Part shown: positions 3,521 to 31,296 of the stretch, piece after piece
How the letters are laid out: each line of letters begins with the position of its first letter
Numbering within the stretch: position 1 is the stretch's first letter
DNA from: Candidatus Hydrogenedentota bacterium
Lineage (GTDB): Bacteria > Hydrogenedentota > Hydrogenedentia > Hydrogenedentales > SLHB01
Length of the DNA stretch: 64,000 bases
Direction of reading: 5' to 3'
NCBI GenBank assembly: GCA_046540175.1
Contig: JBKHFO010000001.1
Location: forward strand, 9,936-73,935
The notes under the pieces: generated by a model
Told to the model about the DNA's origin: nothing
Seen by the model: only the letters and a program-made list of their open reading frames with translations
Database searches by the model: none
Translations under genes and position numbers: made by a program

Positions 3521-3595
3521 AGAAGCCGGCTCTCGCTGTTGCGCAATCCTGCCCCAAGATGACACGGCATGATCAACCACGGAATCAGGGCGGCA

Positions 3596-3632
3596 GGCCA
3601 TTCCCCAAGCCGAACAGACTTGGGGAATGGCC
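3596..3632. terminator. Bidirectional intrinsic-terminator-like hairpin between convergent genes
   Basis: Perfect 12-bp stem GGCCATTCCCCA / TGGGGAATGGCC with a 14-nt loop. It lies between the stop at 3520 and the stop at 3660. Confidence 0.5.
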
Positions 3633-3659
3633 GCCGCCGTTCGGCGGGGCGCCGCCAGG

Positions 3660-6233
3660 CTATTCGTAGGTGAAGACGGCCGTCGCGGCGCAATCGGCGT
3701 TCGCGCGGAGGCGGATCCAGTGGGCCGCGAAGCCCTCGGGGAACTCGTGGGTTACGGTTTCGCCCGCGGGCACGGTGAGTTCCGCGTAGGTGAAATACGT
3801 CTCGGGCGTATGAATCGCGCCGAAGATGTCGATCTCAAGCGCGAACGTCACGGCGCTGTCCGCGTCATGGCTTAGCTCGACCCGCTTGCGGTCGTAGCCG
3901 GTCATGAGGTACGGATCGCTCGCCTCGCCGGTTTCCACGGCCGTGCCGCGCCAGGGTCCGCCCACGCCGCGCGGCTTGCCCAGCTTCCAGAGGTCATCAA
4001 TATCGCCAACCCACAGCCCGGTCCGGCCGTCATCCGACGGGATAAGGTGGGGATGTTCGGGATCCGCACCGGCGGCCACTCCTGTAACCACCATCATGCC
4101 GAGCCACGAGCAGAAGTCGATGATCCGCTTGTTGTGTGTCGCCACGGGTTTCAAGGCGCGCACGCCGCCGGAGCTGTTGCGCGGCATCATGTAGAACGTG
4201 CCCGCGGCGTTGAGCAAGGCGCGCTCCGTCACTACTTCGCGCACGCGCCGGGGATCGCCGCCGGGCCAGGCCGCGCCGTAGGCTTCATGTCCTTTAGGCA
4301 GGCGGAACCGCGTGGCGCCTTGGAACAGGATAACCGAGGCTTCATCGATTTCGATATCCAGATCGCCGTCGGGCGCTTGCCCCATACCGCCCGCTTCGAT
4401 GGCGGCGTTTTGCCGCAGGTACTCGGCGGCGTCCGTGTCGTCGGGCTTGTGGCGTAGCACGAGGTCCTCGCCAATCTCGTAGTACCCCACGCCGCTGACT
4501 TCGCCGTCCGCGTCCACATGGCGCGCCCACAAGTGAAGCGTTTCCAGGTCCCCGCCGCGCGGCCGGATGATGCCCCGGGTGTAGGCGTCATTGGTCTCCA
4601 CGCTGGCCAGGGGCGCGAACATCGCCTCGTCCACGACGCTGCCCTTGGAGGGGCCGAAGTGGAAATGGGCCGTGGCCTGGCTCACGTCCCGGTCCGCGCG
4701 CACACGCATCCATTCCCCCGGCGCATCAGGCGGGATGACGTGGTGCGCGTAGCCCTCGGCGGGAACTTCGACCTCGGCATGGTCTTCCCAGTCGTTTTTG
4801 CCGGTGCGATCGATCTCGAGATGAAAGGTCACGGGTTCGCCGGAGTCGTGGCCCAGATGCAGCACCCGTTGCTCGTAGCCCGCGATGAAGAAGGGGACCG
4901 ACGGCGCGCCGCCCTCGACCGGATCCTCCATCCAAACGCCGCCCCATCCCACGGGCGCGCCCATATCGTGCAGGGCGTCCCACGTGGAGAACCAGAGGTT
5001 GGAGTGGCCTTGGCCCACAAGCGGATTGTCGAACGGCGAGGCGTCGTTGCAGGCGAACACCAGCTCGCCGTTCCAATTCTCCACGTCGCTGATGATCTTC
5101 AAGTAGGCGCTGATCGGGCGCAAGCCGGATCGATCGCCCGGCGTAAGGCGTATGGGAAAGTCGAACAAGCCGCCGTTCTTTATCATGAGCAGACGGGGCG
5201 GTTCGCCGTTCGCCGCTGGGACCGCCTCGCGGATGCGCGGCCATTCCGTGTGCCAACCATGATGGCCGTCGTACGAGAAGTCGGCCTTCGGCATACGGAA
5301 CTCCCGCCACTCTTCGTTCTCCATGACCATTAGAATGAGCGAGCGCTTATCCCAGCCCGTGGCCCATACCGGGGCCTCGTCATCGGGCGCCCCGTATATG
5401 CCCCCCGGTCCCGTGACCTCGGTGAACTGGCGCCGTTTGATGAGCCGCCACTCGTCTTCGCCATCCCAATCGGCCAGGATGCCCGCATCTTCATCGCTCT
5501 GATGCTCGGGATCAATCTGGTACTCGAAGGGCTGGAACGGATTCACCGTGCCAGAGGCGTGCTCGCCGTTGTTGCCAATGACGAGGCGGCCCTGGCCGGT
5601 GTAGGCGCCCTTGGCGTGCCAGCCCGGAACGGGCCGGGCGTAGAGAAGGTTCACCTCCAGGGTGTGCACGTCCACTTCGTACAGCAGCCCCTCCATATCA
5701 AAGTGGTAAACCTTGTTTCCGGGATCGTGCAGATGGCGGGCCGTTCCCGTGAGCCGGCCAAAGAGTTTATCCTCTTCCGGCGCGTCGGGCGCATCGCCCA
5801 TCGGAATTACCCGTATGTTGCGGTCCTCGTCCACGAAATAGGGGCCGATGAGGAGCTGGTTCGATTCCCGGTGAATCATGCGGTTGGCGGGCGTGCCGCC
5901 GACGCTATCCGGGAAATGCTCCCGGTTTAGGTCCTCGTTAATGATCCACAGCTTGTCCGAGCTGCCGCCCGGCGAATGCTGGTGATAGGTAATGACCCAC
6001 AGGCGGTCTTGCCATTTCACAACCGCGCCCACCCCGCACTCCCCCCCGCCGTCGCGGTTGAACACGGTGAGATGCGGATACCGCCCGCTGACCCGGAAAT
6101 GCCCTGGATTACCCGCCTGCGCCTGGACGGCGGCGCCCTCCAGGTTCTCCATAAACCCCAAGCTAGCGCCTGCGGCGGCCGTGGCGGCCAGAAACTGACG
6201 GCGCGTCAAACTACCTGCTGATTTCTTGGTCAT
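3660..6233 (-). CDS. Large Tat-secreted hypothetical protein (857 aa) with a C-terminal tandem duplicated domain
   Basis: MTKKSAGSLTRRQFLAATAAAGASLG twin-arginine signal. Two related C-terminal segments: ...SGEPVTFHLEIDRTGKND...WMRVRADRDVSQATAHFHF and ...DADSAVTFALEIDIFGAIHT...WIRLRANADCAATAVFTYE. No family motif recognised. Confidence 0.75.
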   Translation of the reverse strand: MTKKSAGSLTRRQFLAATAAAGASLGFMENLEGAAVQAQAGNPGHFRVSGRYPHLTVFNRDGGGECGVGAVVKWQDRLWVITYHQHSPGGSSDKLWIINEDLNREHFPDSVGGTPANRMIHRESNQLLIGPYFVDEDRNIRVIPMGDAPDAPEEDKLFGRLTGTARHLHDPGNKVYHFDMEGLLYEVDVHTLEVNLLYARPVPGWHAKGAYTGQGRLVIGNNGEHASGTVNPFQPFEYQIDPEHQSDEDAGILADWDGEDEWRLIKRRQFTEVTGPGGIYGAPDDEAPVWATGWDKRSLILMVMENEEWREFRMPKADFSYDGHHGWHTEWPRIREAVPAANGEPPRLLMIKNGGLFDFPIRLTPGDRSGLRPISAYLKIISDVENWNGELVFACNDASPFDNPLVGQGHSNLWFSTWDALHDMGAPVGWGGVWMEDPVEGGAPSVPFFIAGYEQRVLHLGHDSGEPVTFHLEIDRTGKNDWEDHAEVEVPAEGYAHHVIPPDAPGEWMRVRADRDVSQATAHFHFGPSKGSVVDEAMFAPLASVETNDAYTRGIIRPRGGDLETLHLWARHVDADGEVSGVGYYEIGEDLVLRHKPDDTDAAEYLRQNAAIEAGGMGQAPDGDLDIEIDEASVILFQGATRFRLPKGHEAYGAAWPGGDPRRVREVVTERALLNAAGTFYMMPRNSSGGVRALKPVATHNKRIIDFCSWLGMMVVTGVAAGADPEHPHLIPSDDGRTGLWVGDIDDLWKLGKPRGVGGPWRGTAVETGEASDPYLMTGYDRKRVELSHDADSAVTFALEIDIFGAIHTPETYFTYAELTVPAGETVTHEFPEGFAAHWIRLRANADCAATAVFTYE

Positions 6234-6354
6234 GGCGCCCCCCTGTCATGTGAGATTCGGTGTTCAGTTACCCCCGTGTAGTTCAATGGGTACTAGAATC
6301 TCATATGGACCGCGCCGTTTTCCAGGGGGCCCCCAATTATCCAGGCGCTGGTTG

Positions 6355-6783
6355 CTACGTTTTCCCGCGATACCCGTCGACGGACCACCGGTTGTCGCGG
6401 CACACGAAGTATAACGCCGCCACGGTCACAAGGATGTAATTGATGTTATTGGCGGTGGTGGGGGGATTCCCCATGACGTTGGTCCCCAGGGACAGCATGA
6501 TAAGCAGTACCCCCGTCACGGTGAGCATTGGCCTTGTAAAGATTCCCACGATGAGCGCCGCGCCGAGAAGCACCTCGATATACGGCAACACATAGGCGAA
6601 GGGCGCCACGAGAAAGACCGGCAAGTAGGTCTCCTCGAAGTTCCCGATCATGCCTTGGGCCGCGGCGACAGGTCCGCTGGCAATCTTGTTGATGCCGGCG
6701 AAGAAGAACAACACGCCGAGTCCCACGCGCAACAACAGGGCTGACACGGCTTCAAAAGGAAATGGTTTGTTGTTTCCAGTCAT
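6355..6783 (-). CDS. DoxX family membrane protein
   Basis: Translation MTGNNKPFPFEAVSALLLRVGLGVLFFFAGINKI... with 4 predicted TM helices typical of DoxX. The ATG at 6783 has AAGGGAG 8 nt upstream. The ORF-track start at 6810 is an upstream GTG. Confidence 0.8.
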   Translation of the reverse strand: MTGNNKPFPFEAVSALLLRVGLGVLFFFAGINKIASGPVAAAQGMIGNFEETYLPVFLVAPFAYVLPYIEVLLGAALIVGIFTRPMLTVTGVLLIMLSLGTNVMGNPPTTANNINYILVTVAALYFVCRDNRWSVDGYRGKT

Positions 6784-7406
6784 TGTAACGGCTCCCTTGT
6801 TACTGTTCACTCAGTGTCTGTGGTTTAGTAGCCATAAAGCCGCGGCCTAATCCATTGCGAACAGCGGAGAAGACATTGTTGCTGCAAATTATCGCCTCTA
6901 CCTCCACCTGATGTTCGCCGTCCCTCTGAGATGGCGAAAGTTTGCTTCCGTAATCATGTGGTATTAAAGGACCAACTTCACGTTTACTTGTACTTGGATA
7001 CTGTCTTCGTCCGCAAAAACTCCGCCGTAGGTTCCCCCCCTCCCACGAGAGTCACGGGCAAAACAGGTAGGACAATACTTTATATTTATAGTGTTTAATT
7101 TATCATAATTACACATTATGATTTCTACGCGTTGTTTCTTACAACTGTAATATAGCAAACAAAGGCTGGGAGCAGGGATATTCCGCGGATGGCGTTTGGA
7201 TCGATGGAGGAGGCTGCCGGGGGGGGAATAGAAGAACGCGGCCGGTCATTCCCCTCTTAATAGGAAGAGATATTGAAGCGTTCAAGCGTCTTTAGGGTGG
7301 CTTGCCTGAGGGCCATAGGCTGGGTGCGAACGGCCTTATTCAGCCCGCCCAGGGGGCTTTCCATGAGGTATCCCGTGCAACCGATGGGGCGGATTGGAGA
7401 TAGGCA

Positions 7407-8510
7407 TTACCACAAGGTCCCTTTGACGATGGGGACGCGAATCTCAAACCGCGTTCCCCCCGTTTCCAGGTCATCGTAGGAGACGGTTCCGCTGTGGGCG
7501 GTGATAATCCGGTGGACGATGGCGAGCCCGAGGCCGGTGCCTCCCTCTTTATGGGTTACGAACGGTTTGAACAAGTTCTGATCGGGAGGGGCCTGGATGC
7601 CGGCGCCGTTGTCATACACCTCGAAGAGCATATCCGCGTCCACCCGGTGAACCGCGATCAATACCCGGCCTTCCCCGGGCTCGACGGCGTCGATGGCGTT
7701 GTTGACCAAGTTGGAGAGCGCTTGGGCGATGCGGCTGGGATCGGCTTCCATCTCGGGAAGCCCAGGAGGGACGTCTTCCTCCAGCCGCACCCCTTTGTCT
7801 GCGGCCTTTTGCTGGCACAGGCGCAGGGTCCGCGCGACGATCATCTTGGGATGACAGCGGGTAATCTCGATTTGGAACGGCCGGGCGAAACCGAGAAACT
7901 GGCTGATGGTCCGTTCCAGATGGGCGGCCTCCTCGAAAATGGTTTGGGCCGTGTCGTGCAGGTCCTGATCATCCGCTTTGCGCTGGAGCCATTCCGCCAT
8001 TCCACTGATTACCATCACAGGGTTTCGCAGTTCATGGACTACGCCGGCGGTCAGCTCACCTAACGAGGCCAACTGCCGGTTAAGTTCGGCGGCCCGCTCG
8101 ATATTGCGGCGCTCTGTCATGTCCGTGAACAAGAAGATGACGCCGTTGAACGCATCGGGACCGTCCAGCAAAGAGGCCGACAGGCCGATCTCTCGCTTTT
8201 GTCCCTTGGCTATCTCAAGGACAATTTCCCGCCGCGAGATGGACTTCTGAGCGGTCATGACCTCCCGCATTACCTCCATGAAGGGCCGGGCAATGGGCAG
8301 ATCCTCAATGTGGATGCCCGGCGCGAAATCCAATTGATTGGCGTTGAGGAAGCCGCACGCAGCGGGGTTGGCGATGAGGATGCGGGCCTCGTTGTCAAGC
8401 GCCATGACGCCGCTAGGAAGGCTGTGGATGATCTGATTCGCGTAGTCGCTCATCGTTGGGGCGAGGGCTCTTTCACCGTCACCCCACGGGCTGCCTCGCT
8501 CAGGTTCCAT
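7407..8510 (-). CDS. PAS-domain sensor histidine kinase with no adjacent response regulator
   Basis: H-box HELRNP, N-box NLVNNAIDA, G1 DNGAGI, G2 GGTGLGLAI. An N-terminal PAS-like segment is present. The start was trimmed to the ATG with GAGGAC upstream, so the exact start is uncertain. Confidence 0.85.
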   Translation of the reverse strand: MEPERGSPWGDGERALAPTMSDYANQIIHSLPSGVMALDNEARILIANPAACGFLNANQLDFAPGIHIEDLPIARPFMEVMREVMTAQKSISRREIVLEIAKGQKREIGLSASLLDGPDAFNGVIFLFTDMTERRNIERAAELNRQLASLGELTAGVVHELRNPVMVISGMAEWLQRKADDQDLHDTAQTIFEEAAHLERTISQFLGFARPFQIEITRCHPKMIVARTLRLCQQKAADKGVRLEEDVPPGLPEMEADPSRIAQALSNLVNNAIDAVEPGEGRVLIAVHRVDADMLFEVYDNGAGIQAPPDQNLFKPFVTHKEGGTGLGLAIVHRIITAHSGTVSYDDLETGGTRFEIRVPIVKGTLW

Positions 8511-18162: not shown

Positions 18163-18720
18163 GCGTGTCTTGGCGGGTGAGCGGCGGCCATGTGCGCTTC
18201 CGCTCGCACGCCGCCCGGGGCCGGGCTTGGGGGCATGTGGTACACTGGGAGTTCGTGGGAAGATGAATCTTTTGTCCGAGTTGCGGGCATACATCCAAAA
18301 GACCCCAGCGGGGTCATGGATGGTAGCCAGGGGTTGAGCCCGCGAGCGCAAGCGAGTAGGGCGACACCCCTGGATCGAGGGTCCCCCACAAAGACGGACC
18401 CCGGCAGGGGTCCCAGACTCCAGGCTTCCGCGGCCCCTGCCGGGGTCGATTTGGGGTCGTCTTCGATTCCAGGGGTATTGCGTGCTGACGCACGCTGCAA
18501 CCCCTGGCTATCATCTGTCATCCCTGCCGGGATGGATTTATTTGTGACAGCATTTCAGAATCGGAACGAACACACATTCGGCGCTGACCACGCCCACATT
18601 GCGTTCCCCAATGGGCGAGTAGGTTTCCATCGCCGCCGGGGAATTTCCCGGCGGTTTCTAACGTTTCCACGGCATGGTGTTGTACGGTTTATTGGATCAG
18701 TTAAGGCCCGAGGAGGGGTT

Positions 18721-19641
18721 ATGCGCGTTATTCTAGCAAAACCACGGGGTTTTTGCGCAGGTGTTGAACGGGCGATCAAGTGCGTGGAACAGGCCTTGGA
18801 ACGGTATGGCGCCCCAGTGTATGTGCTCAACGATATCGTTCATAATGCGAACGTGGTCAACGAGTTGCGGGCGAAGGGGGCCATCTTTGTCAAGGACGTA
18901 AACGCGGCGCCCGAGGGCGCACACTTGCTCTTCAGCGCCCACGGTGTTGGCCCGGACCGTTGGGAAGAAGCCCAACGCCTGAGCCTGGATGTGATCGACG
19001 CTACATGTCCTCTTGTTGAAAAGGTGCATCGCGAAGCGCGCCTGTTCGCCGACAAGGATTTCACCGTCATTCTTATCGGGGAGGAAGGCCACGACGAAAC
19101 CGTTGGCACGAAAGGCTGGGCGCCGGACAACATACGGGTGGTGTTTTCGGAACACGAAGTCGAGCAACTCGAGGTCCCCGACGAGACGAAGCTGGCCTAT
19201 ATTACTCAGACCACCTTGAGCGTGGAGGACTGCCGCCGCGTGATTGAGGCGCTTCGGCGGCGCTTCCCGCATATTCAGGGGCCCAAGTCCGCCGACATCT
19301 GTTACGCCACCCAGAATCGCCAGGCGGCGGTGAACGCGCTCTCCCCTTACGTGGATCTCGTGCTTGTCGTTGGCGACAAGGAAAGCGCCAACTCCAATCG
19401 TTTGGCCGAGATTTGCCGGGTACAAGGGCGGCCCGCTTACCTGATTAGTTCAGCCGACGCCATACAAGAGGCGTGGTTGGAAGGGGTCCAGGATGTGCTG
19501 GTCACTGCCGGGGCCTCTGCGCCCGAATCCCTTGTGAAAGGCGTCATTGACTATCTGAGCGAACGCGGCGCGGAGGAAATTACCGAGAGCGAAATCATGG
19601 CGGAGAACGTCCACTTTAAGTTGCCCACCTCCATCGCGTAG
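18721..19641 (+). CDS. ispH: 4-hydroxy-3-methylbut-2-enyl diphosphate reductase
   Basis: MRVILAKPRGFCAGVERAI..., ATCPLV and TLSVED. GAGGAGG Shine-Dalgarno sits 6 nt upstream of the ATG at 18721. The ORF-track start at 18190 is an in-frame upstream extension. Confidence 0.92.
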   Translation: MRVILAKPRGFCAGVERAIKCVEQALERYGAPVYVLNDIVHNANVVNELRAKGAIFVKDVNAAPEGAHLLFSAHGVGPDRWEEAQRLSLDVIDATCPLVEKVHREARLFADKDFTVILIGEEGHDETVGTKGWAPDNIRVVFSEHEVEQLEVPDETKLAYITQTTLSVEDCRRVIEALRRRFPHIQGPKSADICYATQNRQAAVNALSPYVDLVLVVGDKESANSNRLAEICRVQGRPAYLISSADAIQEAWLEGVQDVLVTAGASAPESLVKGVIDYLSERGAEEITESEIMAENVHFKLPTSIA

Positions 19642-21257: not shown

Positions 21258-21887
21258 ATGGATAGAATGAAAGGCCCCGCGCTTGTGGTGTTGTTTTTAA
21301 TGGCCGCGCTTGGCGGTGGGGGATGCGCCGCCGGACCCGGCGTTGTCCCATACGACGCCTTCAGCAGCGTTCGTGAAGCAGATCAGGAGCGTCCCGGCGA
21401 ATGGCGGATTGAGGACAACCGCATGGTGAATGTTATTCCCGAAGAAGCGGCGTCCGACGCTGTAGCGGCGGGAGAGGAAGGGGCCAGCATGGCCTTGGTC
21501 GAGGGGTTCCGCGCCCGGGATGTGGTGGTGAAGGGGCAACTCGGGTTCGAGGGGTATGCGGCGCCCGCCCTCGTGTTTCGGGCGCAGGAGGAAGATGGCG
21601 TGGTGGACGCTATGTACATGTTGGTGGTGAACACCGACGGCGTGTTCCTCTGGCGGCTGCTCGACGGGAATTGGATGGCCATCGTACGCCATTATGTGCC
21701 TTTGCCGCCGGAGACGATGCATACGGTGCGCGCCGAGGCGCGCGGGGACACGATTGAGGTTGCGTTGGACGGAGAGGACCTTTTCGATACGAATGACACG
21801 CTTCTCATGCAAGCTGGCGGAGCCGGGGTGAGCGCCCGGGAAGGCGTGTGTTATATAGCGGATGTCGGCGTGGAGAGTCTGGATTAG
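21258..21887 (+). CDS. Secreted protein (possible lipoprotein) with DUF1080-like concanavalin/jellyroll domain
   Basis: MKGPALVVLFLMAALGGGGCAAG signal. GEWRIEDNRMV ... GVSAREGVCYIADVGVESL resembles the 3-keto-disaccharide hydrolase / DUF1080 pattern. Family assignment is weak. Confidence 0.5.
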   Translation: MDRMKGPALVVLFLMAALGGGGCAAGPGVVPYDAFSSVREADQERPGEWRIEDNRMVNVIPEEAASDAVAAGEEGASMALVEGFRARDVVVKGQLGFEGYAAPALVFRAQEEDGVVDAMYMLVVNTDGVFLWRLLDGNWMAIVRHYVPLPPETMHTVRAEARGDTIEVALDGEDLFDTNDTLLMQAGGAGVSAREGVCYIADVGVESLD

Positions 21888-21901
21888 GGAGGTTGTATTT
21901 C

Positions 21902-23947
21902 GTGGCGGGCTATTCTTCCTTGCGGAGCTTGGCGATCCTTGGCGCGCTCCTATGCGCGGGGCCGTGGGTCCTTCCGGCGGACGCGGCGACATTCGAGGGG
22001 GTGGTGTTGGGACCCGGCGGGGATCCGGTGGAGAACGCGCAGGTCTTCATCGAGCCGGGCGTGGAGCACTCCCTCCGGCAGACCGAGACGGACGCAAGTG
22101 GACGTTTTACCTTTGAAGACGTTCGCAACGGGCGCATCGGCCTTTTCGCGGTGGCGGATAATCTGTCCTTTGGCGGTAAGACCGTGACCGCCCTGTCGGG
22201 GGCGAGGGAGACCGGCTTGCAAGTGCGTCTTGGCGAACCCGCGACGGTGCGGGGCAGGGTGCGCGATGCGGACGGGGCCGCCGTGTCCGAAGCGCGCATC
22301 ACGAGGGTGGCGCTTCTGCAAGAAGACAAGGTTGGCATCCCGCTAGCCAAATTGCGCGCATTCGACTTCTCCGAGCCGGCCACGGACGGGGAGGGCCGTT
22401 TCCAGATCCCGAACATGCCCGAAGGGGTGGAACTGGCGTTGAAGGTGGGCCATCCCAGTTATGCTCAGACAAGCGTCATGGGCGCCCGCGCGGGCATGCA
22501 ACCCGTCGAGGTGACCCTTGAGCAAGGCGTCTTGGTCCAGGGCGAGGTGGTGACTCGGGGAGATGAGCGCCCCGTGGCGAACGCGTTGGTGCGCTTCTCC
22601 AGCGCCGAGCCGCCGCACGACACGGCGTTGGCGCAAACGAATTATCAGGGCGGATTCGCCGTGCGCCTCAACCCCGGCGGCTACGTGTTCCGGGCCGATG
22701 GCGAGGCGTATGCAAGCCCAAGCTGGCAACAAGTGGTGCTGCCGGAGGACCGTGCTCAAGTTCAGGTGCAGCTTCGGGTAGCCGGCAAAGGAAGCATTGA
22801 AGGCGAGGTTCGGAACGCGCGTACCGAAGCTCCTGTCACGGGCGCGCGCTTGATCTTGGAAAGCGGCGGCCAACAAGCCGAGGCTGTGCGCACGGGCAGC
22901 GACGGGAGCTTCGAGTTGCCCGCGGTCGCGGGCGAAAATGTCTTGCGCCTGGATCAGGCGCCGGGTTATCTGCAACCTTCGACATCCGCCTACCGCGTTG
23001 ATGTCCGGGAGAACGAAACCACGGAACTTCCCACCCTCTGGCTGGCCCCTATCCCTGACTATCGCGTTACCGTCGTGGATGACGATGAAGAGCGTGTCCC
23101 TGGCGCCGTCGTCACAATGGCGCGTCCAGCCCAGTTGGGGTGGCATGTCGCGGACGAGGCTGGGGTGGTGAATCTGGAGTTCTCCCAACTTTCCCAAGGA
23201 ACGCCCATTGGCGTCGCCTATCATCCCACGCAGCCTCTCGGAGCCTTGTTCACCTTGCCGGAAAGACAGGAGGAGGCGCTTGTTCAGCTTTCGTCATTGC
23301 AAGAAGTCCGGGGCGAGGTGATGAACGCCCAAGGCCGGGGCTTGGAAGGTTTGGTGACGGCCTTGGCGTTCACTGGAACCGGAGAGGACGAGCAACCTGT
23401 GCTGCTGTCTCAAACCGTGAGCAGGTCCGGCGGCGGCGCTGTGTTTCCGGGAACGCCCGGCGGCGTGCGTCTGTCTCTCCTGGCTCAAGATGCGCAGGGG
23501 CAGTTTGGCCGTTCGGAAGGATTTCGGGCGGAAGAAGCTTCCGGCGCCATCGAAGTGCGGGTGGAGGAAGGCCGGGGGGGCGTGTCGGTGATAGGGGAGA
23601 CGTTCGCGTTGGATGACATGTCTCCTCTGAACGAGGCCGCCCGCGCGATGAGCGATTTCACGGGACCTTTCGTGGCGGTATTTGCCGAAGCCGGGGAAGC
23701 CGCCATGCTTGCCGAGAGCCTCGCCCAGTTGCGCGAGGTTTACAGCAATCATGGGGCGCGCTTTGTCCTCGGTGTGTCCGCCGAGTATGGTGAACTTGAG
23801 GGAGAAGAGAACGCTGGTCCCGTGTTCCAGGGCGAGGCGCCGGGCAGCGCGTCGGTTTATCTTGTGAATCGCGAGGGGAGCGTGGTGTACGAGGCGCTGG
23901 GACTGCCCAGTCCGCCCGCTATCCAGCGGCTATTGACGGAGAATTGA
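21902..23947 (+). CDS. Secreted protein of multiple carboxypeptidase-regulatory-like (CarbopepD_reg) repeats ending in a thioredoxin-like (TlpA-like) domain that lacks CxxC
   Basis: GTG start at 21902 with GGGAGG 9 nt upstream. Signal SLRSLAILGALLCAGPWVLPADA. Repeated GxVxxxxGxPVxxAxVxxxxxxxxTDxxGRFxF units (FEGVVLGPGGDPVENAQVFIEP...TDASGRFTF and others). The C-terminus FVAVFAEAGEAAMLAESLAQLREVYSNHGARFVLGVS aligns to the redoxin fold without Cys. Confidence 0.7.
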   Translation: MAGYSSLRSLAILGALLCAGPWVLPADAATFEGVVLGPGGDPVENAQVFIEPGVEHSLRQTETDASGRFTFEDVRNGRIGLFAVADNLSFGGKTVTALSGARETGLQVRLGEPATVRGRVRDADGAAVSEARITRVALLQEDKVGIPLAKLRAFDFSEPATDGEGRFQIPNMPEGVELALKVGHPSYAQTSVMGARAGMQPVEVTLEQGVLVQGEVVTRGDERPVANALVRFSSAEPPHDTALAQTNYQGGFAVRLNPGGYVFRADGEAYASPSWQQVVLPEDRAQVQVQLRVAGKGSIEGEVRNARTEAPVTGARLILESGGQQAEAVRTGSDGSFELPAVAGENVLRLDQAPGYLQPSTSAYRVDVRENETTELPTLWLAPIPDYRVTVVDDDEERVPGAVVTMARPAQLGWHVADEAGVVNLEFSQLSQGTPIGVAYHPTQPLGALFTLPERQEEALVQLSSLQEVRGEVMNAQGRGLEGLVTALAFTGTGEDEQPVLLSQTVSRSGGGAVFPGTPGGVRLSLLAQDAQGQFGRSEGFRAEEASGAIEVRVEEGRGGVSVIGETFALDDMSPLNEAARAMSDFTGPFVAVFAEAGEAAMLAESLAQLREVYSNHGARFVLGVSAEYGELEGEENAGPVFQGEAPGSASVYLVNREGSVVYEALGLPSPPAIQRLLTEN

Positions 23948-23955
23948 GCGAGACG

Positions 23956-25869
23956 ATGGTTTCACGCGAGCACATCAAGCGAATGGGAGATTTCCCCGGG
24001 ATTATGCGTGTTTTGGTTGTTTTGGCGGTGCTTATTCCGGCCTTTTTGATGATTGCGCCCGCCTGGGCGGAACAATTCGAGGTGTCCGGCGGGGTGATGA
24101 GTTATACGCGGGAGCCGGTGGAAGGCGCCTCCGTATGGCTGGTCCAAGGTCGGCAGGTCGACCGGGTGGAAACCGATGCCGAGGGAAGCTTCCGCTTTGA
24201 CGGAGTGACCGTCGGTCCCGCCTCCGTGGTGGCGCTGAAAGAGGGATACGCGCTGGGAGGGGCGGACATTCGCGTGGCGGATTCTGTCGAAACAGATGTG
24301 ATGCTCCCTCCGGAGGACGATCTTACTGTTCGGGTGACCAACCCTCAACATAGACCCGTGTCAGGGGCCTACGTGAAAAGCCTGCGTATTGGGGGGGCGT
24401 TTACCGTGCCGGTGGAGGAATTGATGGAAGAAGGTTTTCCCCGCCTACGGAGCGATGACGAGGGGTTTCTCACCATTCCGCATTTGCCCCAACAAAGTCA
24501 CATAGCGTGCCGCCTTTATCACCGTGATTACGCCGAGAGCCATGTCGCCTACTTGCCGGTGGGGCGGATCGAGGATCAGGATATCCTTCTCTATCCTGGA
24601 GTTACGCTCGAAGGCCGGGTGACGGGACCGGAGCAAGAGGGCGTGAGCGAGGCGCGCGTGCGGCTGTTTCGCGTTGGCGGAGGAGGCCGGCGGGAGTTCG
24701 CCAGCCAGTTCACGGATCCCGAGGGCTTCTACCGGATAACTGCGCGGCCGGGCGAATACTATCTTACTGTGGACCACCCGGCGTTTGGCGCGCCGAAACC
24801 TACGGAAGTGGCGTTGCGGCCCGGCGATGAAGAGGGCGCGCGCAACATCGAATTGCGATCCCCCCGGCATATCGAGGGCGCCGTAGTGGATCCAGACGGC
24901 GAGCCCATGGCGGGCGTGGACGTGGCCTTTCTGGGTGAAGAAGGAACCATGCACGCCCATACGTGGACGGCGGCTAATGGGGAGTACGAACTTCAGGTTG
25001 GGCTGGAGGAAGGGGCCGTGCGCGTGTTTCCGCCCAATGGTTACATGACGGATGCTTTCTCCGATGTGCTCGTACAGTTTGATGGCGCGGAACGAATCAA
25101 CTTGGAGCCACTTGAACTCGACCCATTGCCCGAGATTCGCGGACAAGTCGTGAATGCCCAGGGGGAGCCCCAGCCGCGGGTGATCCTTTCCACCGATGAT
25201 TTGGAGCATCCCCTGTGGTTCTTGACCAATGAAGAAGGGCAATTCAGCATTCGGTTGCCCCGCGTGCCTGACGATGCCGAGGCCACATTCGAGGCCGAGC
25301 ACGCGTTGCGGTTTCAACGAGCGGAGTTTACCGTGGACTTGCGGGATCCCGCCCCCATTCAACTGGAACTCGAACCCTTTGAACCACGTCTTAGAGAAAG
25401 AGGCGAGGAAGAGCCAACCCGTAACCGCCTGGGCCAGCTCATTGGCGAGGAAGCGCCGCCCGTTCGCTCCGAGGACTGGTGGAACAGCGATCCGCTTGAT
25501 ACACGCGACATGCGGGGAACCGTGCTTGTTCTGCTGTTTTGGGGCGGTTTTGACTATCTTGGCGAGGGACGCAATGTGCTGGAACACGTCCGTGCTCTTC
25601 ACGCGCTATATGACGACGTGGAGGACGTGGAAATCATCGGTGTTCACGATAGTAGTCTCGAGGCGGATGACGTCGAGTACTACGTGGACGAATATGGGCT
25701 CCAGTTTCCGGTGGCTCGCGATGTCGATACGGCGGAAACCTTCCACCGGTTTAACATCACGCATATTCCAGAAGTGGTCTTAATTGATCGCCACGGCCGG
25801 GTGCGCTTCCACGACGTGGAACATCAATTGTCGGAACTGATCAAGGTGCTTCGCCGGGAAGGACGGTAA
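23956..25869 (+). CDS. Paralog of the preceding gene: CarbopepD_reg-like repeats plus a C-terminal redox-inactive TlpA-like domain
   Basis: Signal ...MRVLVVLAVLIPAFLMIAPAWA. Repeats (FEVSGGVMSYTREPVEGASVWL...TDAEGSFRF; IEGAVVDPDGEPMAGVDV...). C-terminal GTVLVLLFWGGFDYLGEGRN...FPVARD...IPEVVLIDRHGRVRF, with WGGFDY in the place of WCxxC. Start uncertain (23956 or 24004). Confidence 0.7.
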   Translation: MVSREHIKRMGDFPGIMRVLVVLAVLIPAFLMIAPAWAEQFEVSGGVMSYTREPVEGASVWLVQGRQVDRVETDAEGSFRFDGVTVGPASVVALKEGYALGGADIRVADSVETDVMLPPEDDLTVRVTNPQHRPVSGAYVKSLRIGGAFTVPVEELMEEGFPRLRSDDEGFLTIPHLPQQSHIACRLYHRDYAESHVAYLPVGRIEDQDILLYPGVTLEGRVTGPEQEGVSEARVRLFRVGGGGRREFASQFTDPEGFYRITARPGEYYLTVDHPAFGAPKPTEVALRPGDEEGARNIELRSPRHIEGAVVDPDGEPMAGVDVAFLGEEGTMHAHTWTAANGEYELQVGLEEGAVRVFPPNGYMTDAFSDVLVQFDGAERINLEPLELDPLPEIRGQVVNAQGEPQPRVILSTDDLEHPLWFLTNEEGQFSIRLPRVPDDAEATFEAEHALRFQRAEFTVDLRDPAPIQLELEPFEPRLRERGEEEPTRNRLGQLIGEEAPPVRSEDWWNSDPLDTRDMRGTVLVLLFWGGFDYLGEGRNVLEHVRALHALYDDVEDVEIIGVHDSSLEADDVEYYVDEYGLQFPVARDVDTAETFHRFNITHIPEVVLIDRHGRVRFHDVEHQLSELIKVLRREGR

Positions 25870-25891: not shown

Positions 25892-25941
25892 AAAACCCCA
25901 CGCTTCCGCCGCAGAGTGGAGCGTGTGGGGTATTCGCTTTT
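25892..25941. terminator. Bidirectional terminator hairpin between convergent genes
   Basis: AAAACCCCACGC...GCGTGTGGGGTATTCGCTTTT. A GC stem followed by a T-tract. Confidence 0.45.
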
Positions 25942-25980: not shown

Positions 25981-26247
25981 TTACTGTTGAATCGCGTTGG
26001 CCCGCCGTTGCAAAGTAGCCTTTTTTCGGGAGGCGTTATTCCGGTGGATCACGCCCTTGGACGCCGCGCGATCGATGTGCGACAAGGCGCGGGGCAGTTC
26101 TTCACTAATGGCGGCCGGGTCGTTCTTCTGGATGGCCTCTTCGGCGCGCCGAATATGGGTTTTCATGCGGGACTTAACGCTGATATTGCGTTCCCGCCTC
26201 AGCTCATTGACACGAATACGTTTTCGGGCAGACTTGATGTTGGCCAT
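25981..26247 (-). CDS. rpsT: 30S ribosomal protein S20
   Basis: MANIKSARKRIRVNELRRERN...AASKGVIHRNNASRKKATL matches the S20 consensus. GGAGAG sits 4 nt upstream. Confidence 0.9.
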   Translation of the reverse strand: MANIKSARKRIRVNELRRERNISVKSRMKTHIRRAEEAIQKNDPAAISEELPRALSHIDRAASKGVIHRNNASRKKATLQRRANAIQQ

Positions 26248-26477
26248 TACGCTCTCCATTGGTTAATTCTACTTGTCCACATCAGCGGACGAAGTGTAGC
26301 AAAAGGGAAGCGGCCGAATCAAACCACCGAATCACGCCAAGGCGGATTCCCCAAAAAACACGCTCGATAAGCCCGGATTTCAAGGCTATTTTGGGCTATT
26401 GCGTAAGGCAAACGGATCCCGGGCGGCAATTCGTGAAAAGTCTGCGCCGTGGAAACTGCAACCTTTCCGGGTGGATT

Positions 26478-26543: not shown

Positions 26544-28517
26544 ATGCGCATGGCGGACAAGAACGAAAGCAAACGGCCTGGCTACGGGGACTACATCCCG
26601 GGTGAGGCCCTCGTGAAGCAGGATATCATCACACAGCAAGAACTGGAGGACGCGCGCGCCAAAGAGGAAGAGAGCGGCACTCCATGGTATCGCCAACTGC
26701 TTCATAGCGGCAAGATTACGTTTGAAGTGCTTGAAGATATCCTTTATCACGAGTTCCACCCGAAATCGATCCGGGAGGAGCACGATCAACTGGGCCGGAC
26801 CTTGGTCGACATGAAGGCCATCTCCCAGCAACAACTCGAGGAGGCCTTGGAGGAACAACGGCGCAACGGCCGTTTGCTGGGAAACATCCTGCTGGATCGG
26901 GGATGGGTGACGCGCCGCACGATCGCCAAGGCGTTGAGCAAGCAGTACCGCATGGAATTCGCGGAGGCGGATAAAACCCCGAGCGAGTCCGAAGCGCTCG
27001 AGGCCGTGCCGGAGAGCATGGCGCGAAAGAACAACATGCTTCCTGTCCAGCTTGAAGGGGACAAGCTCACCGTCTTGGTGAATACGCCCCAAACGCGCGA
27101 CGCGTTGCGCAACGTGGGTGTTCTGTTGAGCAAGCGGATTCATCCCATCCTAACCGATATCGAAGACATGAGAGCCGAGATTCACGCCCGCTATCGCGGA
27201 AAGAAGGGGCGCTCGCTGCTGGGATTCAAGCGGTCTGGCAAGGAGGCTGACTCGGAGAAGGGCGGGCGCTTCCTAAAGCGAAAAGACAGGCATGAGGCGA
27301 CCGGCCCTGGCGCGTCAGGCGACGAGGGGAAAGGAGAAGGCCGCCGTTTCGAGGGTATTGCGCAAGAGGCCTCGGGGGCGCCCGTGGTGAAGTTGGTCTC
27401 CACGATTATCGAGGGCGCGGCCAATAGCGGCGCGACCGATATCCACCTCGATCCCCAAGACCCGGAAACGCGGGTGCGGTACCGCATTGACGGCGTTCTT
27501 CACGATATCATGAGTATCCCGAAGAATATCGAGGCGGCCACGGTCTCCCGCATCAAGATTCTGGCGGATCTCGATATCACCGAGACGCGCCATCCCCAGG
27601 ACGGCCATATGAGCCTTCACGTGGGTGAGGCGGCATACGACGTGCGGGTGGCCACGATGCCCACCTTTCTCGGGGAACGAATCGTATTGCGGCTGCTTGA
27701 CCAGACAAGCGTCCTCGCGGGCATCCGTGACCTGGGGCTGGAGCCAGAGGATGAGGACAAGCTCCGGCGCGCCATCGATCAGCCCTACGGCATGATATTG
27801 GTCACCGGCCCCACGGGCAGCGGCAAGACCACCACGCTCTACGCCGCGCTCAACCAGAAGGACGTGATGACCGAGAGCATCGTCACGTTGGAGGATCCCG
27901 TGGAGTATCAGCTGTCGGGCATCAACCAGGTGCAGGTGGATCCCGACATCAACCGCACCTTCGCCAGCACGCTGCGCTCGGCCCTGCGCCAGGACATCGA
28001 CGTGCTTCTCGTGGGGGAGATCCGGGACGCGGAGACCGCCCACATCGCCATACGCGCGGCCATGACCGGCCACCTTGTTTTCAGCACCCTGCACACCAAC
28101 GACGCTGTCGAGGCCGTGGGGACCCTGCGCAACATGGGCGTCCCCTCCTATCTGATCGCCAGCGCCCTCACGGCCGTGGCCGGCCAGCGCCTCGTGCGCA
28201 AGGTTTGTCCTTACTGCAAGACGGCGTTTCAGCCCGATTCCGCCCTCCTCCAGTCGCTCGGCATGCCGGAGGATACGCGGGAACTCTATCGCGGGGCGGG
28301 ATGCGAGAACTGCTACCACACCGGCCACAAAGGCCGGACGGGGGTCTTCGAGATGTTCGGCGTGAACCAAGAACTCCGCCGTCTCATCGCGCGGGACGCC
28401 ACCCATGAAGAGCTATTCGACGCAGCCCAGGTAAAAACCATGGCTGACCGCTGCCGCCTCAAAGTGGCGAGGGGAGAAGTCAATGCCGAGGAATTCCTCC
28501 GCACCGTGCGTTTCTGA
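26544..28517 (+). CDS. GspE/PilB/MshE-family secretion ATPase with N-terminal tandem MshEN-like (c-di-GMP-binding-like) motifs; no other pilus or secretion genes adjacent
   Basis: Walker A GPTGSGKTTT. Asp/His boxes. C-terminal tetracysteine CPYCK...CENCYHTGHKG. The N-terminus holds two consecutive 24-aa-like motifs, QLGRTLVDMKAISQQQLEEALEEQ and RLLGNILLDRGWVTRRTIAKALSKQ. ACAGGAG Shine-Dalgarno is present. Confidence 0.9.
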   Translation: MRMADKNESKRPGYGDYIPGEALVKQDIITQQELEDARAKEEESGTPWYRQLLHSGKITFEVLEDILYHEFHPKSIREEHDQLGRTLVDMKAISQQQLEEALEEQRRNGRLLGNILLDRGWVTRRTIAKALSKQYRMEFAEADKTPSESEALEAVPESMARKNNMLPVQLEGDKLTVLVNTPQTRDALRNVGVLLSKRIHPILTDIEDMRAEIHARYRGKKGRSLLGFKRSGKEADSEKGGRFLKRKDRHEATGPGASGDEGKGEGRRFEGIAQEASGAPVVKLVSTIIEGAANSGATDIHLDPQDPETRVRYRIDGVLHDIMSIPKNIEAATVSRIKILADLDITETRHPQDGHMSLHVGEAAYDVRVATMPTFLGERIVLRLLDQTSVLAGIRDLGLEPEDEDKLRRAIDQPYGMILVTGPTGSGKTTTLYAALNQKDVMTESIVTLEDPVEYQLSGINQVQVDPDINRTFASTLRSALRQDIDVLLVGEIRDAETAHIAIRAAMTGHLVFSTLHTNDAVEAVGTLRNMGVPSYLIASALTAVAGQRLVRKVCPYCKTAFQPDSALLQSLGMPEDTRELYRGAGCENCYHTGHKGRTGVFEMFGVNQELRRLIARDATHEELFDAAQVKTMADRCRLKVARGEVNAEEFLRTVRF

Positions 28518-28830: not shown

Positions 28831-30165
28831 TTATGATTCGGAACGGCGTCGGCGCAGGCGGTATTCCTGTGGCGACACGCCCTCGAATTTACGGAACAGC
28901 CGGCCCAAATTGCTGGGATCGTTCACACCCACTCGCTTGGCCACCTCGTTCACCGGGAGTTTCGTGCGCCGCAGGAGTTCCTTCGCCCGCTGCACCCGCA
29001 AGCGTCCGACATATTGGCTAAATGAGAGCCCGAACTTTCGCTGAAGGCGGTGGGTGATGGCGGTGGGATTCTGGCCGATGGCCCGCGCCGCCTCGTCCAG
29101 CGTGACGCCCTCGGCCAGCCGGGGCGTCACATAATCGTGTAGCGCCTTGTACGTGGGGTCCTTGTCCGCCCCTCGCGTGGCGCGTTTCTTGGGGGGGCGC
29201 AACGCCTTGAAGAATTCCATGAGGCTGTCGACGAGCGCGGCGTCGTTCCGGGATGCCCGAATGGCTTCATAACACGCCGTCAAGCGATCCCAACCCCGTT
29301 CCACATCGAAGCCGGCCCGGCTGGCGCCCTCGAGCAGTTCCCCGGCCAAACTCAGCGCCCGGCCCCGCCGCACTGGCAGGCGAACTTTCTTGCCTCCCTC
29401 CGTTTCCGTGATGGCGTCGTGAAAGAGCGCGCGCGCTTGCTTCGTGTCCCCCGCCGCCAGCGCCAACGCCAAGGGGCCGCCTTCGCGGATGACGTCCGTC
29501 ATGGAACGGGTTTGGCGCGAGGGGGGCGCGGTGTCCGGGGCCGTGCGCCCGGGTTCATGGGCCTCGGTTTCAGCCGTTTCTTGCGCCTTGTGTTCGCGCC
29601 ACAGCGCTTGGAAGGAGGCCGTGGCCCAGTCCGCCAGCGCCGCCATGGCCCCAGCCGGGGCCGTGCGCACGTCATCCAGCGAAAAAGGCAGCCGGGGCTC
29701 GGCGCTTCCCGTGAAGTTGGCCAACCGTTTACGCACGTCCGCTTCCAGTCCTTCAGGCGCTTCAGCGGGACAGTAGGGACCCAAGGTGAGGACCACGTTG
29801 GGCGCGGCTTCCGGCAAGACGGGCGCGGACAGACACGCAAACCCCATGTGACACTGAAAAGGGATCGAGCGCTTGCGCCGGGAGGCGGCGAGGCTGGCGG
29901 GCAGACGCGACCCCCTACAGGCCGCTCCTCCGCCGGCCATCGCCGTCACATGGCGGCAGGCAGCGCAGCCGGGTTCCCGCGTGGCCAGCGCGTGCTCTTC
30001 CTCTTCTGTCACGTAGTGAATGCTCAGCGGCATGGCCGCCGCTTGGCGCATCCGTTCGATCCACCGCGCCGTCTCGTCCGACTGCAAAAAGGTCATTATC
30101 TCTTCCGCCAGCGCGGATCCCGAACGATCAATGTCATTGGAGCGCGAGTTCATGCCGAATGCCAC
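28831..30165 (-). CDS. AraC-family transcriptional regulator with N-terminal Cys-containing (PocR-like) sensory domain
   Basis: C-terminal AraC HTH pair (LDEAARAIGQNPTAITHRLQRKFGLSFSQYVGRLRVQRAKELL...VNEVAKRVGVNDPSNLGRLFRKFEGVSPQEYR). The N-terminus has IHYVTEEEE...CAACRH...FQCHMGFACL. Confidence 0.8.
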   Translation of the reverse strand: MAFGMNSRSNDIDRSGSALAEEIMTFLQSDETARWIERMRQAAAMPLSIHYVTEEEEHALATREPGCAACRHVTAMAGGGAACRGSRLPASLAASRRKRSIPFQCHMGFACLSAPVLPEAAPNVVLTLGPYCPAEAPEGLEADVRKRLANFTGSAEPRLPFSLDDVRTAPAGAMAALADWATASFQALWREHKAQETAETEAHEPGRTAPDTAPPSRQTRSMTDVIREGGPLALALAAGDTKQARALFHDAITETEGGKKVRLPVRRGRALSLAGELLEGASRAGFDVERGWDRLTACYEAIRASRNDAALVDSLMEFFKALRPPKKRATRGADKDPTYKALHDYVTPRLAEGVTLDEAARAIGQNPTAITHRLQRKFGLSFSQYVGRLRVQRAKELLRRTKLPVNEVAKRVGVNDPSNLGRLFRKFEGVSPQEYRLRRRRSES

Positions 30166-30330: not shown

Positions 30331-30390
30331 TGTCACTTTTTTAAGGAGGAGCCTATGCGCTATACTTGCAGGCCTTGATTGGGGAGCACG

Positions 30391-31296
30391 ATGAAGCTAA
30401 CGCCAAACCAAGAGCGGCGCATAACCAAGTACTTACAGGACGTTCACGCCCAAACCGAAGGGCTCTCCGACGCCCAACGGCGCCGGGCGCTCGCCCATGT
30501 GAAGGCGCAGTTGCGCGAACGGCTCCAACAGTATACAGATGCCGCTCCCGAGGATACCGAACTTGAGGCGATTCTAAACAACTGCGCGCTGCCCGGCTTT
30601 GTCTCTTCCGCTGCTAACCAGGAGGCGCGGGAGGTGGGGGATGTGGAGGCATTGGAGCCCAGCGCCTCTCCGCAAGACACTTCCCCGCCGCAAAATGAAC
30701 CCCGAGCGGCGCGCGGCGATTTCCTCGAACTCGAGGGCCGCGTTTGGCTTGGCGTTTGCTCGGGGCTTGCCCGCTACCTCCGGATAGAATCCGCCATTGT
30801 CCGCATCATCGCCGCCGTCGTGGGCGTGGCGACCTTGGGATTCCTCCTTTGGGTTTACGTGGGATTATACCTGTTCTTCTATCTGCGCGACCGCTCCGGG
30901 GTGTTGCCGCCCCTTGATGTGCTTCCTGTCGTGCGGCGCATGGCGGGAATGCTGGCGTTAGGGATTGTCATGTTCGCCGTTGGTGAAATGGCGCTGTGGG
31001 CGATGGGCGCGGTCGCGGGGCTGGCCGCCGGGCATGGAATCACTGTTGACGCCGCCTGGGGCTGGTTTGCCGAGCGAAATGGGACCATCGTGTTTTGGAC
31101 CCTTGTATTCGCCCTTCCCTTGGGGGCCATGAGCGCCATGCCCGTCGCCGAAGGCTGGGACTACACGCTTAGGAAACTAGCCCAAGCCTGTCTGGCCGTG
31201 TACGCGCTGCTCCTCACGTTTGGTCTGGCGTGCCATTTCGTGGGACTGCTGCTGGAAGCTACCGGCGCCGGGACGGGCGTCACCACCGGGGAATAG
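30391..31296 (+). CDS. PspC-domain membrane protein
   Basis: RVWLGVCSGLARYLRIESAIVRI (PspC motif) followed by several TM helices. ATG at 30391 with GGGGAG upstream. The ORF-track start at 30379 is a TTG. Confidence 0.75.
   Translation: MKLTPNQERRITKYLQDVHAQTEGLSDAQRRRALAHVKAQLRERLQQYTDAAPEDTELEAILNNCALPGFVSSAANQEAREVGDVEALEPSASPQDTSPPQNEPRAARGDFLELEGRVWLGVCSGLARYLRIESAIVRIIAAVVGVATLGFLLWVYVGLYLFFYLRDRSGVLPPLDVLPVVRRMAGMLALGIVMFAVGEMALWAMGAVAGLAAGHGITVDAAWGWFAERNGTIVFWTLVFALPLGAMSAMPVAEGWDYTLRKLAQACLAVYALLLTFGLACHFVGLLLEATGAGTGVTTGE

Follow-up and report, generated by a model that had tools for sequence, protein, structure and literature searches.

The closest described relatives of the proteins reported here are the exported thiol-disulfide oxidoreductases of the TlpA/ResA/CcmG type, especially the subgroup that includes the C-terminal domain of DipZ, SPOA0173, NHLRC2 and SOQ1. 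The proteins in question are encoded by two adjacent genes, designated g2 and g3, located within positions 21258 to 25869 of a 64,000-nucleotide (nt) stretch of contig JBKHFO010000001.1 from a Candidatus Hydrogenedentota bacterium (the whole stretch is hereafter referred to as the window), and both are preceded by a lipoprotein gene, g1. Fold and export are shared with the TlpA/ResA type: the N-terminal hairpin with AP..W, strand 1, helix 1, strand 2, an insertion, strands 3 and 4 and helix 3 can all be recognized, and so can the Trp that precedes the active site, the loop of the cis-Pro and, after strand 2, the sequence G[IV]H. The differences concern the active site and the setting of the domain. 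Both Cys residues of the CxxC motif are absent throughout the family, in all of its roughly 100 clusters, the g3 domain stands at the end of an array of five beta-sandwich domains and not on a membrane anchor, and the g2 domain lacks the middle helix and the cis-Pro as well. In terms of the TlpA/ResA type, g3 carries the fold, whereas CxxC is found in neither g2 nor g3.

Thioredoxin folds without CxxC are known from the b and b' domains of protein disulfide isomerase (PDI), which bind clients or partners instead of performing redox chemistry. The PDI domains differ from those of g2 and g3 in being eukaryotic, in belonging to the classical thioredoxin subfamily and not to the TlpA/peroxiredoxin-like group, and in sharing a polypeptide with the active a and a' domains, whereas g2 and g3 have no active domain.

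Arrays of CarboxypepD_reg domains joined to TlpA domains also occur with an intact active site. Three such proteins, P0229 (744 amino acids, aa), P0235 (943 aa) and P0218 (1238 aa), were among the best non-family matches of the g3-domain profile (E=1e-23 to 1e-25). Each begins with a signal or N-terminal region, continues with several CarboxypepD_reg domains and ends in at least one TlpA-like domain, but all three keep FW(G/A)TWCxPC and, as far as their short contigs show, stand outside both the g2-g3 pair and its synteny with the ribosomal protein gene rpsT. Because CxxC is intact in these three proteins, only the Cys-less state, and not the CarboxypepD_reg-TlpA fusion, is new, and their intact CxxC supports the view that g2 and g3 descend from an active reductase built in the same way. 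An earlier note on this DNA, made by a model from the sequence alone, had described the fusion as unlike any family it recognized. That holds in so far as no curated Pfam or NCBIfam family covering g2 or g3 was found, but not for the architecture, which these proteins share.

What is new here is a phylum-wide, duplicated and Cys-less version of a known architecture. As the overall explanation we propose that g2 and g3 are paired exported arrays, in which g3 would supply a non-catalytic recognition module and g2 a structural or pairing module. We judge this explanation to be slightly more probable than improbable; its descriptive part is much more secure than its functional part.

Export, repeat arrays and paralogy of g2 and g3

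Sec-type signal peptides are visible in both window proteins and throughout the family alignment, with cleavage likely after ADA at residue 27 of g2 (...ADA/AT) and after AWA at residue 38 of g3 (...AWA/EQ). Strong acidity (pI 4.2-4.6) is a further feature of the window proteins. The Pfam model CarboxypepD_reg (PF13620; cut-off 32.3 bits) matched g2 with E=8e-32 (109.8 bits) and g3 with E=8.5e-42 (141.8 bits), and in either protein four stretches were above the threshold, so that repeated transthyretin-like domains of about 80 aa are present in both. When the proteins were cut at the recurring G-x-V motif and the pieces were aligned, a total of 11 units was obtained, six from g2 and five from g3, and all of them carry the pattern GxVxD..G.PV.gA.V...TD..G.F. 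The two adjacent genes of the earlier note, each described as encoding a signal peptide followed by 4-6 carboxypeptidase-regulatory repeats, were thus found as it had described them, with both open reading frames (ORFs) at the positions listed in Table 1.

The two proteins align with each other by BLASTP over 434 collinear residues, with 26% identity and E=2e-23; as judged by sequence, g2 and g3 are tandem paralogues, that is, ancient duplicates. Mature g2 contains no Cys at all, and the single Cys of g3, C185, is located in the second beta-sandwich, outside the thioredoxin domain.

The C-terminal domain of g3

The C-terminus of g3 matched two Pfam models above their cut-offs, Thioredoxin_8 (28.7 bits; cut-off 27) and AhpC-TSA (27.7 bits; cut-off 26), and the NCBIfam model of ResA with E=3e-10. 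A profile of the domain built from 13 family members detected ResA (4nmu) in the PDB with E=6.7e-15, and DipZ-C, SOQ1 and NHLRC2 were also matched. In the alignment with 4nmu, the g3 sequence FWgGfD is placed opposite FWGTWC (FWGGFD-YL-G against FWGTWC-KP-C), so that D533 corresponds to the nucleophilic Cys and G536 to the resolving one. The AlphaFold2 model of the domain, with a predicted local distance difference test score (pLDDT) of 89 and a predicted template modelling score (pTM) of 0.87, retrieved ResA in a Foldseek search (E=4.5e-10) with template modelling (TM) scores of 0.71-0.77, and superposes on ResA, DsbE and DipZ with TM scores of 0.71-0.79. On the combined basis of profile matches and the predicted structure, we assign the g3 C-terminus to the TlpA-type thioredoxin fold. 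The proline typical of this fold is also retained: P605 is present in all of 101 Cys-less g3-type family domains, the set to which the residue counts below refer, within a consensus IPQT (Q in 82 and T in 75). The cis conformation of this loop is putative, being read from the alignment with ResA.

The g3 domain contains no Cys, and the peroxidatic Cys of the peroxiredoxin (AhpC/TSA) motif PxxxTxxC is missing together with the Cys pair of the reductases. By the general correspondence of positions within the thioredoxin fold, D533 and G536 would stand in place of the peroxiredoxin Thr and peroxidatic Cys, respectively.

Below the family members and among the next-best matches of the g3-domain profile were tandem TlpA proteins of 370-450 aa with the active-site sequence FWATWCGPC, many of which also contain 'IHD'. 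In several of these tandem proteins, one of the two domains no longer has its cysteines. Examples in which CxxC persists in one domain and is gone from another include P0197, P0199, P0202, P0211, P0232 and P0233 (364-485 aa). Since proteins of the P0197 type show it, the loss of Cys from duplicated TlpA domains recurs outside the g2-g3 family.

The C-terminal domain of g2

The situation is different for g2, whose C-terminus gave no match in Pfam and, as a profile searched against the PDB, no better match than E=0.13, to an unrelated protein. Comparison of the g2 and g3 domains by hhalign was collinear and marginal, with E=0.11, 0.04 or 0.007 depending on alignment and mode. On these three results, a TlpA-like nature of the g2 C-terminus could not be established from its sequence. 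The structure model, built from 38 family sequences (pLDDT 86.4, pTM 0.78), predicts the order strand 1 (FVAVFA), helix 1, strand 2, a loop, strands 3 and 4, and helix 3. Unlike g3, the g2 domain has neither the usual middle helix nor the cis-Pro, and strand 3 is preceded by PGSAS, which offers no equivalent strand-adjacent proline. The family motif of the domain is ETFG[LM]PP. In the model, the place of CxxC, where strand 1 ends and helix 1 makes its first turn, is taken by FAEAGE (residues 594-599), and no Cys is present anywhere in the domain. The model thus supports a predicted thioredoxin fold without active-site Cys for the g2 C-terminus.

According to the earlier note, both C-termini align to TlpA/ResA oxidoreductases, with WCxxC replaced by WGGFDY in one gene and by FAEAGE in the other. 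The alignment itself was reproduced for g3 (by the ResA match above) and not for g2 at the level of sequence, while both replacements were located where the note had placed them, WGGFDY by alignment on ResA and FAEAGE by the model. The note would have given up its reading if the C-termini showed no thioredoxin fold or if the repeats were unlike CarboxypepD_reg domains; sequence and predicted structure for g3, predicted structure for g2 and the Pfam matches of both arrays all speak to the contrary. Its view of the two domains as redox-dead is shared here: because neither C-terminal domain has any Cys, thiol-disulfide exchange and peroxiredoxin chemistry would be impossible for both, and a reductase activity supplied by DsbD/CcdA would be ruled out on chemical grounds.

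Conservation of the domains and of the former active site

In an alignment of 82 full-length g3 representatives, the thioredoxin domain was the best conserved region, with a mean majority frequency of 0.58 against 0.43-0.49 for the beta-sandwiches and an entropy of 1.84 against 2.2-2.5. In g2, the thioredoxin-like domain was instead the least conserved of all domains (0.48 against 0.49-0.61). The g3 domain is under strong purifying selection, and this selection is concentrated on residues that, in TlpA-like enzymes, frame the substrate groove. Of the 101 domains, 99 have the Trp that precedes the former CxxC (W529), 95 the Phe that follows in the WGGFD motif, 100 the His after strand 2 (H564) and 92 the Asp after that His (D565). 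The former nucleophile position (D533) is occupied by Asp in 68 domains and by Ala in 18, and Cys was observed at either former CxxC position in none.

From these frequencies, the g3 domain could be regarded as a thioredoxin-fold enzyme, either a hydrolase, an isomerase or a metal-dependent enzyme, with a new, thiol-independent active site made of His564, Asp565 and often Asp533, since the three residues are common within what is the most conserved part of g3. In about one-third of the family clusters, however, Ala, Gly, Gln or Ile stands at the Cys position instead of Asp; the His-Asp motif is inherited from CxxC-bearing relatives, in which it is not the catalytic nucleophile; and an orthologue, P0221, has none of these residues and yet keeps both the gene pair and the synteny. 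We consider an enzyme of this kind very improbable.

The same conservation data bear on a second alternative, in which g2 and g3 act independently of each other, at the surface or as secreted proteins, and resemble adhesins or S-layer proteins, their arrays doing the work, for instance the binding of polysaccharide or particles together with the lectin-like g1, and their thioredoxin-like domains being inert caps. CarboxypepD_reg arrays are typical of surface proteins, the arrays of g2 are better conserved than its C-terminal domain, g1 resembles the carbohydrate-binding module CBM66, and a weak match to the model of an anammox S-layer glycoprotein was detected. This last match reached only 29 bits against a cut-off of 1400 and reflects the shared domain type only, most loci with the pair have no g1, and the thioredoxin domain of g3, as its best conserved region, does not behave as an inert cap. 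The alternative is unlikely on balance.

Distribution and gene neighborhood of the g2-g3 pair

Word-indexed searches detected 8 full-length relatives of g3 and about 49 relatives of g2. By an exhaustive HMMER search with the g3-domain profile, the g3 family was extended to about 100 clusters at 50% identity, with proteins of 610-640 aa carrying the domain at the C-terminus; CxxC was found in the g3-type domain of none of these clusters. Among the species genomes of GTDB, 27 out of 30 related loci belong to metagenome-assembled genomes (MAGs) of Hydrogenedentota, including Ca. Hydrogenedens terephthalaticus. The g2 gene is located directly upstream from g3 in L001, L002, L005, L006, L007 and L038 and in about 20 of the 27 GTDB species loci, the spacing ranging from an overlap of 4 nt to a gap of 55 nt. 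The g2-g3 pair is therefore almost confined to Hydrogenedentota and is conserved throughout that phylum.

This distribution bears on the possibility that g2 and g3 are decaying relics of a TlpA-type reductase operon without any current function, as might be supposed from the loss of the catalytic cysteines and from the degenerate domain of g2. Intact full-length ORFs are nevertheless present in about 50 clusters of g2 (at 90% identity) and about 100 clusters of g3 (at 50% identity), family members are 33-90% identical to the window proteins, and the domain order, the signal peptides and the synteny are kept across the phylum. The idea is effectively refuted, and we assign it a negligible probability.

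In most loci, as in the window, the pair is followed by rpsT in convergent orientation. Because the orientation is convergent, the adjacency of rpsT is treated as synteny and not as an operon.

Several records carrying the pair, or g3 with rpsT, have titles of other taxa, namely Nitrospiraceae or Nitrospirales (L013, L016, L017, L019, L025, L026 and L028) and a Bathyarchaeia archaeon (L027). These foreign-titled MAG records are probably due to mislabelling or misbinning.

In many Hydrogenedentota, the genes for RidA (Ribonuc_L-PSP) and for a TPR/Peptidase_MA_2 protein of 403-417 aa lie upstream of the pair and on its strand, as in L001, L002 and L005 (Table 1) and also in L024-L026 and L029-L034. 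Neither gene was found in the whole 64-kb window.

The closest relatives of the window genes are in L009, L010, L011 and L012, for which the isolate names (CSSed..., B1Sed10...) suggest sediment samples; names of this type presumably belong to studies of hypersaline soda-lake sediments.

Proposed role of the pair

In the explanation that we favor, g2 and g3 would be made from one transcript and would cooperate in the periplasm or on the envelope, where they might form a heteromer, with the beta-sandwich array of each forming a rigid stalk or spacer. The pseudo-reductase domain of g3 would keep the TlpA-like docking surface, composed of the Trp before the former CxxC, the IPQT loop and the His-Asp motif. 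Because this substrate-docking surface is retained, the g3 domain is proposed to recognize a partner, either a protein or a peptide, without catalysis, as a module inherited from the reductase ancestor. The domain of g2, which has drifted further with the loss of the middle helix and cis-Pro, would probably have a structural or pairing role, and g1, a putative sugar-binding-type jellyroll lipoprotein, could be an optional accessory in some lineages. From the sequences, the most likely role appears to be that of a module for binding or scaffolding, without redox chemistry, in a pair that would be associated with the envelope and possibly heteromeric, and the binding or scaffold function suggested in the earlier note is reasonable.

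A number of observations weigh against this proposal. With respect to the pairing, a g3-like gene is present without adjacent g2 in four or five species (L013, L014, L027 and L028), a g2-like gene stands alone in L004, and the possible heteromer is suggested by gene adjacency alone. With respect to location, no anchor or sorting signal was seen in g2 or g3, and the periplasm, the outer surface and the medium (as secreted proteins) are all candidate locations. With respect to the docking surface, the residue at the former nucleophile position is not fixed (Asp, Ala and others), and the divergent orthologue P0221 reads LVFWYDLND, GIYVGP and TLPLP in place of the WGGFD, HD and IPQT motifs while retaining the gene pair and the rpsT synteny. 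Because of this variation and of the motifs lost from P0221, no single site is universally required. The His-Asp motif occurs also in CxxC-bearing relatives that match the g3-domain profile and may be purely structural. For g2, the claim to a thioredoxin fold has the predicted structure as its sole basis, because matches at the level of sequence were absent or marginal. A search of the available literature on thioredoxins of Hydrogenedentes, on the envelope of Hydrogenedentota, on Cys-less TlpA and on CarboxypepD_reg-thioredoxin combinations yielded no report on the g2-g3 family.

A more elaborate form of the proposal is a heterodimeric envelope rod specific to Hydrogenedentota, in which the TlpA-derived pseudo-reductase of g3 would be a dedicated client-recognition or 'substrate-trap' module, kept at a fixed distance by a beta-sandwich stalk. 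Such a rod would be a bacterial analogue of the PDI b' type of binding domain, combined with a NOMO-like spacer, and would serve envelope architecture or protein quality control. We regard this specific form as quite unlikely.

If the favored explanation of g2 as a structural partner and g3 as a recognition module is true, the pair would clearly exemplify, in bacteria, the conversion of a periplasmic reductase into a binding module without catalysis. The change would have become fixed, with duplication following, at the root of an entire uncultured phylum. Two uncharacterised families are defined, for which the present annotation is only 'carboxypeptidase regulatory-like domain-containing protein' and which could serve as phylum markers of Hydrogenedentota. 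No long-standing question is opened; thioredoxin-fold domains commonly lose CxxC, and the constituent domains are of ordinary types.

The g1 lipoprotein

The product of g1 is 100% identical to the NCBI entry 'hypothetical protein ACLFU6_00115' of Ca. Hydrogenedentota. It starts with a lipoprotein-type signal, LGGGGC, in which the L-x-[GA]-C lipobox is present and C23 is invariant in all 8 aligned homologues, and on this basis g1 is predicted to be a bacterial lipoprotein. The match to PF06439 (3-keto-disaccharide hydrolase, DUF1080) is weak (E=0.12; 12.8 bits against a cut-off of 26.8), and all 8 members of the g1 family matched this model weakly and below the cut-off, with a best value of E=8e-4. 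With the family profile, the CBM66 module of Bacillus subtilis levanase SacC (4azz) was detected at E=3e-6 over about 110 residues. The g1 protein is likely a ConA-like jellyroll of the DUF1080/CBM66 type. It differs from the described members in being a stand-alone lipoprotein that scores below the Pfam gathering threshold. Of the upstream DUF1080-like protein described in the earlier note, the co-directional position was confirmed, while its assignment to DUF1080 received weak support.

Homologues of g1 are located upstream from the pair in 5 distinct loci (the window, L008, L010, L007/L012 and L005/L030) among about 20 with the adjacent pair. As a constant partner of the pair, g1 was rejected, since the slot is empty or filled by an unrelated 140-aa lipoprotein in many loci, and it is a lineage-restricted companion of g2-g3. 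The conservation of the gene neighborhood, raised for checking in the earlier note, accordingly applies to the adjacency of g2 and g3 and not to g1. The 140-aa lipoprotein, which has no Pfam match, was observed in the g1 slot of L001, L026 and L032 (Table 1).

Gene organization of the window

The region is occupied by three ORFs on the forward strand, all in the same direction and all recovered in the ORF list at the positions given in Table 1. The NCBI annotation of g2 gives the identical 681-aa product. For g3, an in-frame TTG at 23944 is an alternative start, which would create a 4-nt overlap with the g2 stop; an overlap of 4 nt between g2 and g3 is the called gene arrangement in two related loci. 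No sigma-70-like promoter was found in a scan, which is uninformative for the Hydrogenedentota phylum.

Table 1. Positions of the genes, domains, motifs and neighboring features in the window and in related loci.
Locus	Feature	Position	Strand	Description
Window	g1	21258..21887	+	209-aa predicted lipoprotein, lipobox Cys23, likely ConA-like/DUF1080/CBM66-like jellyroll
Window	GGGAGG	21887..21892	+	Shine-Dalgarno-like, 9 nt before the GTG of g2; read from sequence
Window	g2	21902..23947	+	GTG start, 681 aa, exported: signal peptide, six CarboxypepD_reg, predicted degenerate Cys-less thioredoxin-fold domain
Window	g2 repeat array	21983..23569	+	Six transthyretin-like (CarboxypepD_reg) units, residues ~28-556
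Window	g2 C-terminal thioredoxin-like domain	23657..23944	+	Residues ~586-681; predicted model
Window	g2 FAEAGE	23681..23698	+	Residues 594-599, structural CxxC position; secondary-structure map of the model
Window	g3	23956..25869	+	ATG start, 637 aa, exported: signal peptide, five CarboxypepD_reg, Cys-less TlpA/ResA-type domain
Window	g3 repeat array	24073..25377	+	Five CarboxypepD_reg units, residues ~40-474
Window	g3 C-terminal TlpA/ResA-like thioredoxin-fold domain	25441..25866	+	Residues 496-637
Window	g3 F528-W-G-G-F-D533-Y-L-G536	25537..25563	+	Replaces FWxxWC-xx-C; hidden Markov model alignment to ResA 4nmu
Window	g3 His564-Asp565	25645..25650	+	After strand 2; shared with CxxC-bearing DipZ-C/NHLRC2-like relatives
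Window	g3 I-P605-E-V	25765..25776	+	Putative cis-proline loop; family consensus IPQT; aligns with 'lP' of ResA
Window	Terminator-like hairpin	25895..25917	-	8 pairs then T-run, downstream of rpsT
Window	rpsT	25981..26259	-	Convergent to the pair
Window	T2SS/T4P-type ATPase	26544..28517	+	T2SSE with MshEN domain
Window	AraC-family regulator	28831..30165	-	
Window	PspC-domain membrane protein	30379..31296		
Window	IspH/LytB	18190..19641	+	Longest ORF
L001	RidA and TPR/Peptidase_MA_2 genes	2833..4486		Upstream of the pair
L002	RidA and TPR/Peptidase_MA_2 genes	6293..7949		Upstream of the pair
L005	RidA and TPR/Peptidase_MA_2 genes	3601..5278		Upstream of the pair
L001	140-aa lipoprotein	4708..5130		g1 slot
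L026	140-aa lipoprotein	3254..3673		g1 slot
L032	140-aa lipoprotein	3447..3866		g1 slot
L038	P0221	3918..8132		Divergent orthologous pair; P0221 is its g3-type member

The neighbors of the region were considered as a source of functional clues and were rejected, as the metallophosphoesterase, IspH, M20 peptidase, rpsT, type II secretion/type IV pilus (T2SS/T4P) ATPase, AraC regulator and PspC genes are housekeeping or unrelated. The gap of 111 nt between the convergent g3 and rpsT contains the terminator-like hairpin, and the gene for the T2SS/T4P-type ATPase is located just past rpsT, followed in the window by those for the AraC-family regulator and the PspC-domain protein. The longest ORF of IspH/LytB has an N-terminal extension of 179 residues without domain match; because the LytB domain begins only at residue 180, the true start is probably near 18727.

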